Below, piece after piece: positions 53,615-53,862 of a stretch of 64,000 nucleotides of DNA. Below the pieces are notes generated by a model. That model was not told the origin of the DNA. It searched no databases and was given only the letters and a program-made list of their open reading frames with translations. Made by a program: the position numbers and the translations under genes. The stretch lies in the sequence record PQ438048.1, one strand, 5' to 3'. The DNA comes from Escherichia phage MirsaeidiM_Esher1. Position 1 is the first letter of the stretch; every line of letters starts with the position of its first letter.

Positions 53615-53760
53615 ATATTGCGCCCCTTCAACCATGCTTGATGTTGACCAGAACACAGTTTAACTGTGGGAGGAGGAACACCGCAGTGGGCTTCAGTTGG
53701 ACGACTTACAGGGAGCGACCCTGTTTCTTTTCTGGGACTCGGCAGGATTCGATACCTGCA

Positions 53761-53850
53761 ATTCCAGAAGCCTCTTGGCTACTGGGGGTTTACCTTAACT
53801 CTACAATTCCAGAAGCCTCTTGGCTACTGGGGGTTTACCTTAACTCTACA
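53761..53850. repeat. perfect 45-bp tandem direct repeat, 2 copies
   Basis: attccagaagcctcttggctactgggggtttaccttaactctaca at 53761-53805 and again at 53806-53850. Confidence 0.95.
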
Positions 53851-53862
53851 AGTCCATAATTC

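Follow-up and report, generated by a model that had tools for sequence, protein, structure and literature searches.

Two probable small RNA genes, a relative of T4 rnaD and a tRNA-like element carrying a 45-bp tandem duplication, in the tRNA cluster of Escherichia phage MirsaeidiM_Esher1

Introduction

What is encoded in a gap of a phage tRNA cluster that holds no tRNA gene, yet contains a perfect tandem duplication and several hairpins? The question is raised by a 64,000-nt stretch of Escherichia phage MirsaeidiM_Esher1 (PQ438048.1), hereafter the window, which belongs to Phapecoctavirus (phAPEC8-like, Stephanstirmvirinae) and whose closest match is Acinetobacter phage vB_AbaM_ABPW7 (99.3% over 53400-54100, the 45-bp difference aside). 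The analysis reported here makes it likely that the gap harbors two small structured minus-strand RNAs, a tRNA-like element (TLE) and a homolog of the rnaD RNA of phage T4, within a polycistronic tRNA transcript, and that the repeat arose by slippage and is probably neutral. The species 1 and species 2 RNAs of T4 (rnaC and rnaD) have been known since the 1970s and are still without an assigned function (PMC3014915, PMC9697503). A literature search returned no function for either of them and no description of small RNAs in Stephanstirmvirinae.

The Gap Between tRNA-Asn and tRNA-Thr

The tRNA cluster lies wholly on the minus strand, as do the called ORFs from ~49 to 55.7 kb, and the gap between tRNA-Asn and tRNA-Thr was therefore read on that strand. 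It spans 53615-53862 (248 nt), and neither ARAGORN nor the Rfam tRNA model (RF00005, E<=10) identified a canonical tRNA in it. A preliminary description of this DNA was thus correct in calling it a tRNA-free gap of about 250 nt; the gap is, however, not empty. The tandem repeat and the three hairpins that had been taken together as features of a single segment are in fact split between two separate RNA genes, both on the minus strand like the tRNAs, as indicated by covariance models and pair counts, and the proposal that the segment could encode a small RNA was in this sense borne out. The Rfam covariance search suggested at the same time was run on the window and returned no family for either RNA at E<=10. 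Gaps in phage tRNA clusters should not be presumed empty. The gap and its surroundings comprise the following features:

53539-53614, minus strand: tRNA-Thr(UGU), the allele that accompanies the rnaD-like segment
53617-53731, minus strand: homolog of phage T4 rnaD (species 2 RNA) with a T2-type central domain, located with model R1
53735-53855, minus strand: TLE (covariance model R2, 92 bits), 121 nt long here
53863-53948, minus strand: tRNA-Asn(GUU), directly upstream of the TLE, its encoded CCA ending 7 nt before it
54362-54391, minus strand: promoter-like site (TTGACA, 18 nt, TAGATT), a consensus match only

A Homolog of T4 rnaD

A BLAST search with 53530-53740 matched sites shortly downstream of the tRNA clusters of phages T2 and YUEEL01, at 79% identity over 82 nt, and the homologous site of T4 is annotated as rnaD, "small, stable RNA; species 2 RNA" (NC_000866 71053-71171). 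Model R1, which was built from 14 T-even rnaD sequences, none of them from Phapecoctavirus, has a sole match in the window, at 53617-53731 on the minus strand (65.1 bits, E = 1.4e-16), and this match covers model positions 1-120 of 120; Phapecoctavirus or Justusliebigvirus genomes without the segment gave no match to the model. The window RNA and the T-even rnaD RNAs have in common a 5' end of the form AAGAAAC-(C/A)GGGUCGCU(A/C)CC(G/U)GUAAGUCGUC and a 3' end of the form GAA..GGCGCA, and the central domain is close to identical to that of the T2 variant (UCCUCCCACAGUU..ACUGUGUUCUGG). When six Phapecoctavirus-type sequences were added to the rnaD alignment, 96.1% of the cells were paired, against 30-43% in slid controls; the alignment was fitted to the model, and its pair counts lean towards the model. 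Pairs 10-22, 33-116 and 44-107 have changed on both sides, and only in the Phapecoctavirus sequences. Two helices of this RNA bear directly on the hairpins of the gap:

53708-53724, minus strand: rnaD 5' hairpin ACAGGG-UCGCU-CCCUGU, with pair 10-22 changed from CG to AU relative to T-even phages
53654-53668, minus strand: apical hairpin of the rnaD central domain, with the same stem in T2, YUEEL01 and locus L030

The 15-bp palindrome CACAGTT-T-AACTGTG that had been described at 53654-53668 is present and corresponds to the apical hairpin. A plus-strand terminator had also been proposed at 53709-53731: its parts, CAGGG-AGCGA-CCCTG and a T-run, are there as described, but the role is not upheld, the hairpin being the complement of the rnaD 5' hairpin and the T-run that of the conserved A-rich 5' end of rnaD (AAGAAAC). 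A consensus scan does match a plus-strand terminator at 53708-53724; upstream of it there is no convincing plus-strand gene, and the hairpin complements a conserved RNA helix.

The resemblance to T4 rnaD extends to length (~115-120 nt), location within a phage tRNA cluster, orientation with the tRNAs, an A-rich 5' end, a hairpin with the GGGUCGCU motif, and a long stem closed by GUCGUC/GGCGC. The host phage, in contrast, belongs to Stephanstirmvirinae and not to Straboviridae, and the flanks are the TLE and tRNA-Thr, whereas those of T4 rnaD are tRNA-Arg (or a CDS) and rnaC. The 3' ends differ as well. The window RNA ends in ...GGGGCGCAAU, as against ...GGCGCACC(A) in T-even phages, so that GCGCAAU stands in place of the usual GCGCACC; the T-even 3' ends are ACC in 12 of 14 cases and ACA in the other 2, and tRNA-Thr starts 2 nt past the 3' end in the window. 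T4 rnaD accumulates as a stable ~120-nt RNA during infection, which has been shown for T4 only (PMC9697503). At E<=10, Rfam has no family for the rnaD/rnaC region of T2.

A BLAST search with T4 rnaD returned 735 records, almost all of them T4-like genomes of 165-172 kb, and as far as this analysis could find, the window RNA, which is unannotated, would be the first rnaD homolog outside T4-like phages. An rnaD-like RNA together with this tRNA-Thr allele occurs in six phage records only, ABPW7, BI-EHEC, 536P1 and phiWec190 among them; the metagenomic contig L053 also carries an rnaD-like RNA. In the other fetched Phapecoctavirus genomes and in the Justusliebigvirus outgroup, the TLE is followed after 4-8 nt by a different tRNA-Thr allele, which indicates that the rnaD-Thr segment is a derived replacement. 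It is bounded by GAGUCCCAG on one side and by the common tRNA-Thr 3' end on the other. A sublineage of Phapecoctavirus thus probably acquired the rnaD homolog and a foreign tRNA-Thr allele together, as one cassette; the allele is only ~70% identical to the tRNA-Thr of T4 and YUEEL01. Such a transfer to an unrelated phage subfamily, with the helices kept by compensatory changes, argues that rnaD is a selectable module, complete in itself. The homolog also supplies data for comparing rnaD structures and a second genetic system for tests of this RNA.

Several observations were made on rnaD in passing. The sequence CCUCCUCC, at 53669-53676 on the minus strand within the rnaD-like RNA, resembles an anti-Shine-Dalgarno sequence and falls mostly in a predicted internal loop. 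UCCUCCCA is kept in the T2-type central domain and absent from the T4-type; it could pair with ribosome-binding sites. T-even rnaD has at least three interchangeable central domains. The rnaC gene is present in some T-even genomes and absent from others (L023, L029, L030, L031, L033 versus L019-L021, L024, L026-L028, L032), and at several T-even loci rnaD runs directly into GAACACTTGCC, a sequence that elsewhere follows rnaC. Many T-even GenBank records have a "hypothetical protein" CDS over rnaD, and one has an "endonuclease"; in these records, a non-coding RNA gene has probably been misannotated.

The tRNA-Like Element

The second RNA of the gap begins 7 nt past the encoded CCA of tRNA-Asn in all relatives, where it is 75-77 nt long, mostly 76, as opposed to 121 nt in the window. 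In the relatives it consists, in order, of the 5' acceptor strand GGACUUG, UA, a D-arm GAGUU-AAGGUA-AAC, a central hairpin (CCAG-UC-GCC-AAGA-GGC-UU-CUGG in Phapecoctavirus), an AAUU linker, a T-arm, and the 3' acceptor strand CGAGUCC. Its elements in the window, the repeat aside, are:

53849-53855, minus strand: 5' acceptor strand GGACUUG, which pairs with CGAGUCC (pairing probability >0.93 in the duplicated RNA)
53742-53759, minus strand: T-arm GCAGG-UAUCGAAU-CCUGC with an 8-nt loop; the stem covaries (CG to UA, AU to GC)
53735-53741, minus strand: 3' acceptor strand CGAGUCC, from the fold and pair counts

The T-arm is the hairpin with an 8-nt loop that had been recognized as T-arm-like at 53742-53759, and its sequence was confirmed as GCAGG-ATTCGATA-CCTGC. 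RNAfold predicts a cloverleaf for the TLE, with a tetraloop in the place of the anticodon loop (AAGA in the Phapecoctavirus type, AUUU in the Justusliebigvirus type) and an 8-nt T-loop, UAUCRAAU in all types; with these two loops, the TLE cannot decode. Like the rnaD-like RNA, it has no encoded 3' CCA.

The TLE is found at the same position between tRNA-Asn and tRNA-Thr in the sister genus Justusliebigvirus (phi92, inny), with the acceptor stem UGCUUG/CAAGCA, the T-stem GUAGG/CCUAC, and a central hairpin of unrelated sequence, UCUAGA-AUUU-UCUAGA. Comparison of the two genera shows both-side changes at pairs 2 and 3 of the acceptor stem and at pair 2 of the T-stem. In the alignment of nine TLE sequences (A7), 95.9% of the cells are paired and 10 of the 19 pairs show both-side changes, values that none of 500 shuffles reached, and slid partners gave 23-54% paired cells; this family-wide covariation is inflated by the metagenomic types L035 and L052, which were picked from pattern matches because they fold, so that only the comparison of Phapecoctavirus with Justusliebigvirus at the same position is unbiased. 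Model R2 gives 65-101 bits on the relatives and only weak scores, ~24 bits, on real tRNA genes, which fits a tRNA origin of the TLE. In phages phiWec190 (L013) and phiWec181 (L014), the TLE is kept though a 42-aa annotated CDS replaces tRNA-Asn.

A pattern scan of metagenomes yielded L035 and L052 as two further variants, with new acceptor stems and different central hairpins in the same fold; a looser IMG/VR pattern followed by a model filter added no members. TLE diversity is small, with four well-supported types. Matches of the L037/L065 type (34 and 19 bits) have imperfect acceptor and T-stems and were left out of the family, and most of the other metagenomic pattern matches, inspected by eye, were without complementary acceptor and T-stems, several of them looking protein-coding. 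On these comparative grounds, the TLE is best described as an unannotated, conserved small family of predicted tRNA mimics without an anticodon loop, overlooked by standard tRNA finders and by Rfam, which also has no family for it at E<=10 when a single-copy relative is searched.

The stand-alone TLEs (L035 699-785 and L052 1492-1566, both on the plus strand) each occupy the space that separates a stop codon from the ribosome-binding site of the gene that follows. A search of the two contigs gave no tRNA genes; the contigs match nothing in the phage collection, and the neighboring proteins match no PHROG family. In phiWec190 and phiWec181, both flanks of the TLE look like cassette-exchange points.

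Comparison of the TLE With Known RNAs

Like a canonical tRNA, the TLE has a 7-bp acceptor stem directly beside a 5-bp T-stem and UA at positions 8-9. Unlike one, it has a 4-nt loop instead of the 7-nt anticodon loop, an 8-nt T-loop, and a 3-bp D-stem, and it yields neither an ARAGORN call nor an RF00005 match at E<=10, whether in duplicated or in single-copy form. T4 rnaC resembles it in being a small RNA of a phage tRNA cluster that adjoins rnaD, with an acceptor-shaped closing stem followed by a T-arm and with non-tRNA hairpins in place of the D and anticodon arms, and AAUUAU precedes T4 rnaC, the Phapecoctavirus-type TLE and L035. The two differ in the T-loop, which is canonical with 7 nt in rnaC and has 8 nt in the TLE, in length (139 versus 76 nt) and in position, rnaC being located downstream of rnaD and the TLE upstream. 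The TLE was also considered as a homolog of rnaC and rejected as such: at E<=10, model R2 does not match the rnaC of T4, T2 or the other T-even loci, and inspection by eye gave no alignment.

The tRNA-like domain of tmRNA, YrlA, mascRNA, and plant-virus tRNA-like structures keep the acceptor/T-arm half of tRNA and are recognized by RNase P and tRNA enzymes without decoding. The TLE matches no Rfam family, in sequence or model, and its genomic context differs from that of these mimics.

The 45-bp Duplication

The tandem repeat lies entirely within the TLE:

53806-53850, minus strand: repeat copy nearer the RNA 5' end, with D-arm, central hairpin and linker (TRF, alignment A1)
53761-53805, minus strand: second repeat copy, identical to the first (TRF, alignment A1)

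The perfect two-copy 45-bp repeat reported earlier at 53761-53850 was verified in both coordinates and identity. Identity at period 45 spans 93 nt (53759-53851), that is, the two copies plus a 3-nt CAA microhomology; TRF lists 2.2 copies with a score of 189, the top of its 24 rows, and no other perfect tandem duplication with a unit of at least 20 bp occurs in the 64-kb window. The duplicated unit takes in the final two bases of the TLE 5' acceptor strand, the D-arm and central hairpin, and the greater part of the linker.

A comparison of copy number with relatives, as had been proposed, found one copy in every relative. The unit is single in 7 of 7 aligned relatives (alignment A1), and when a 70-nt junction query was compared with 87 phage records, each matched only as two overlapping pieces on a 59-nt stretch, as expected of a single copy. 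The 25-nt repeat junction is absent from IMG/VR and from 185,579 GTDB genomes. Both copies carry a C-to-A substitution (AGTCGCC to AGTAGCC) that the aligned relatives do not have, which indicates that the substitution predates the duplication; by this sequence comparison, both changes would postdate the split from ABPW7-like genomes. The single copy in all relatives and the genome-specific substitution common to both copies argue that the duplication is recent, in agreement with the first of the two options given earlier for a perfect repeat, a recent event or selection.

In RNA orientation, the ancestral single-copy unit is flanked by the near-identical 8-mers TGGACTTG and TGGAATTG, 45 nt apart, and such imperfect direct repeats are a typical slippage substrate. 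The repeat would thus have arisen by slipped-strand or unequal-exchange duplication between TGGACTTG and TGGAATTG in an ancestral TLE, an event that would double the D-arm and the central hairpin and leave the acceptor/T-arm frame intact. The predicted 121-nt RNA has an outer 7-bp acceptor stem (pair probabilities 0.93-1.0), the T-arm and two tandem D-arm-plus-hairpin modules, with a folding energy of -44.6 kcal/mol (z = -3.96). An alternative fold, in which the inner GGAAUUG serves as the acceptor strand of a 76-nt TLE with a 45-nt leader, was discarded, as it has -30.2 kcal/mol, 14 kcal/mol worse, and a negligible probability. The four well-supported TLE types have central arms of differing sequence and length, which suggests that this region tolerates change, and the duplication is thus in all likelihood neutral or almost so. 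In itself, it is an ordinary slippage event.

Possible Roles and Alternative Explanations

RNase P cleaves tRNA-like structures and the multimeric precursors of T-even phages (PMC11143913). The TLE and the rnaD-like RNA would be co-transcribed with the tRNAs, and the promoter-like site at 54362-54391 could drive expression of Ser, Ser, Tyr, Asn, TLE, rnaD-like and Thr. Host enzymes of tRNA processing would then release both RNAs, with RNase P acting at the 5' end and trimming at the 3' end, as for T4 species 1 and 2. The TLE is probably a tRNA-derived mimic in which the acceptor stem and T-arm were kept and a tetraloop hairpin replaced the anticodon arm. In the weakest step of this scheme, it most likely acts as a non-decoding tRNA mimic, and could be a decoy or competitor for an acceptor/T-arm-binding factor, or an RNase P processing signal.

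The TLE might instead be a decaying tRNA pseudogene without a function of its own, the duplication being one more lesion, which would leave the identification of the rnaD-like RNA unaffected. That no tRNA finder or Rfam model calls it, that it has an aberrant T-loop, a short D-stem and no anticodon loop, and that a 45-nt insertion is tolerated in this genome are all compatible with decay. However, its acceptor and T-stems have been kept through both-side changes between two genera, it is retained where the adjoining tRNA-Asn or tRNA-Thr has been replaced, and copies with the same fold exist outside tRNA clusters, so that decay appears rather unlikely. Still less probable is that the duplication is an assembly or sequencing artefact and that the real genome has a single copy. 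Such an error would account for the identity of the copies and for a junction found in no other sequence of the searched collections, but typical short reads are longer than the 90-bp array, so that assemblers seldom invent one of this size, and the flanking 8-mer microhomology is the expected mark of real slippage.

That the repeat and palindromes act at the DNA level as protein-binding sites, as the preliminary description had allowed for the segment, or that they belong to a plus-strand terminator or a plus-strand small-protein gene, is hardly credible. Iterons or operator arrays keep their copies across relatives, usually three or more, whereas here there are only two, in this genome only and inside a structured RNA gene. 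The consensus scan does report plus-strand hairpins of terminator-like form at 53708-53724 and in both copies of the repeat, and plus-strand ORFs cross the region, the 45 bp forming an in-frame 15-codon repeat in ORFs of 83 and 72 aa. These ORFs, however, overlap tRNA genes antisense, have no PHROG family match and lie in a region in which the called ORFs and tRNAs are on the minus strand; the hairpins are accounted for base by base by conserved minus-strand RNA structures common to T-even phages. A bolder proposal, which we regard as doubtful, accepts both RNAs and takes them as a mobile two-RNA module equivalent to T4 rnaD plus rnaC, with the TLE as an undescribed class of anticodon-less mimics and the duplication as an adaptive, host-specific change. 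Were this proposal true, the mimics could be decoys for host defences that attack the tRNA acceptor end, or RNase P operon punctuation, and the duplication, coming after a stem-strengthening substitution, would parallel the convergent rnaD substitution reported as a T4-like phage adapted to a semi-permissive host (PMC12685909). The reading preferred here is that of two small RNA genes in the gap, one of them a non-decoding tRNA mimic that carries a recent and probably neutral duplication.

Other Features of the tRNA Cluster

Promoter-like sites of the form TTGACA-18 nt-TA..(A/T)T, which are consensus matches only, occur on the minus strand at 53234-53263, 54362-54391 and 54949-54978, and would divide the tRNA cluster into ~3 transcription units; the surrounding sequence AAAACTATTGACAAC is common to the first two. 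The cluster ends with a strong terminator-like hairpin (52540-52522). A weak Rfam match to RyhB at 52515-52569 on the minus strand (29 bits versus a gathering score of 55) coincides with this hairpin and in all likelihood reflects nothing but the terminator. The ~275 nt at 53264-53538, which separate tRNA-Thr from the next promoter-like site, contain no tRNA, no R1 or R2 match and no minus-strand ORF longer than 31 aa; at this position, Justusliebigvirus has a 108-aa CDS (VOG5717).

Some tRNA or tRNA-like genes of the cluster stand out, all on the minus strand. The tRNA-like gene at 54267-54353 encodes its CCA and has an odd D-arm and, by eye, a UGA (Ser) anticodon; the Rfam tRNA-Sec model alone detected it, at 37 bits against a gathering score of 47. 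Its phi92 counterpart is flagged as a pseudo tRNA-Ser(TGA). The tRNA at 53958-54042 has no ARAGORN call and scores 39 bits with the Rfam tRNA model, and its counterpart in relatives is annotated as tRNA-Tyr or "tRNA-Pseudo-GTA". Lastly, with its 86 nt and a variable arm that forms a long stem-loop (GUUCGAAAGAAC), the tRNA-Asn(GUU) at 53863-53948 is built like a class II tRNA, a type to which bacterial tRNAs other than those for Leu, Ser and Tyr do not normally belong. As it directly follows tRNA-Tyr(GUA), it may have arisen as a paralog of a tRNA-Tyr through the change of one anticodon base.
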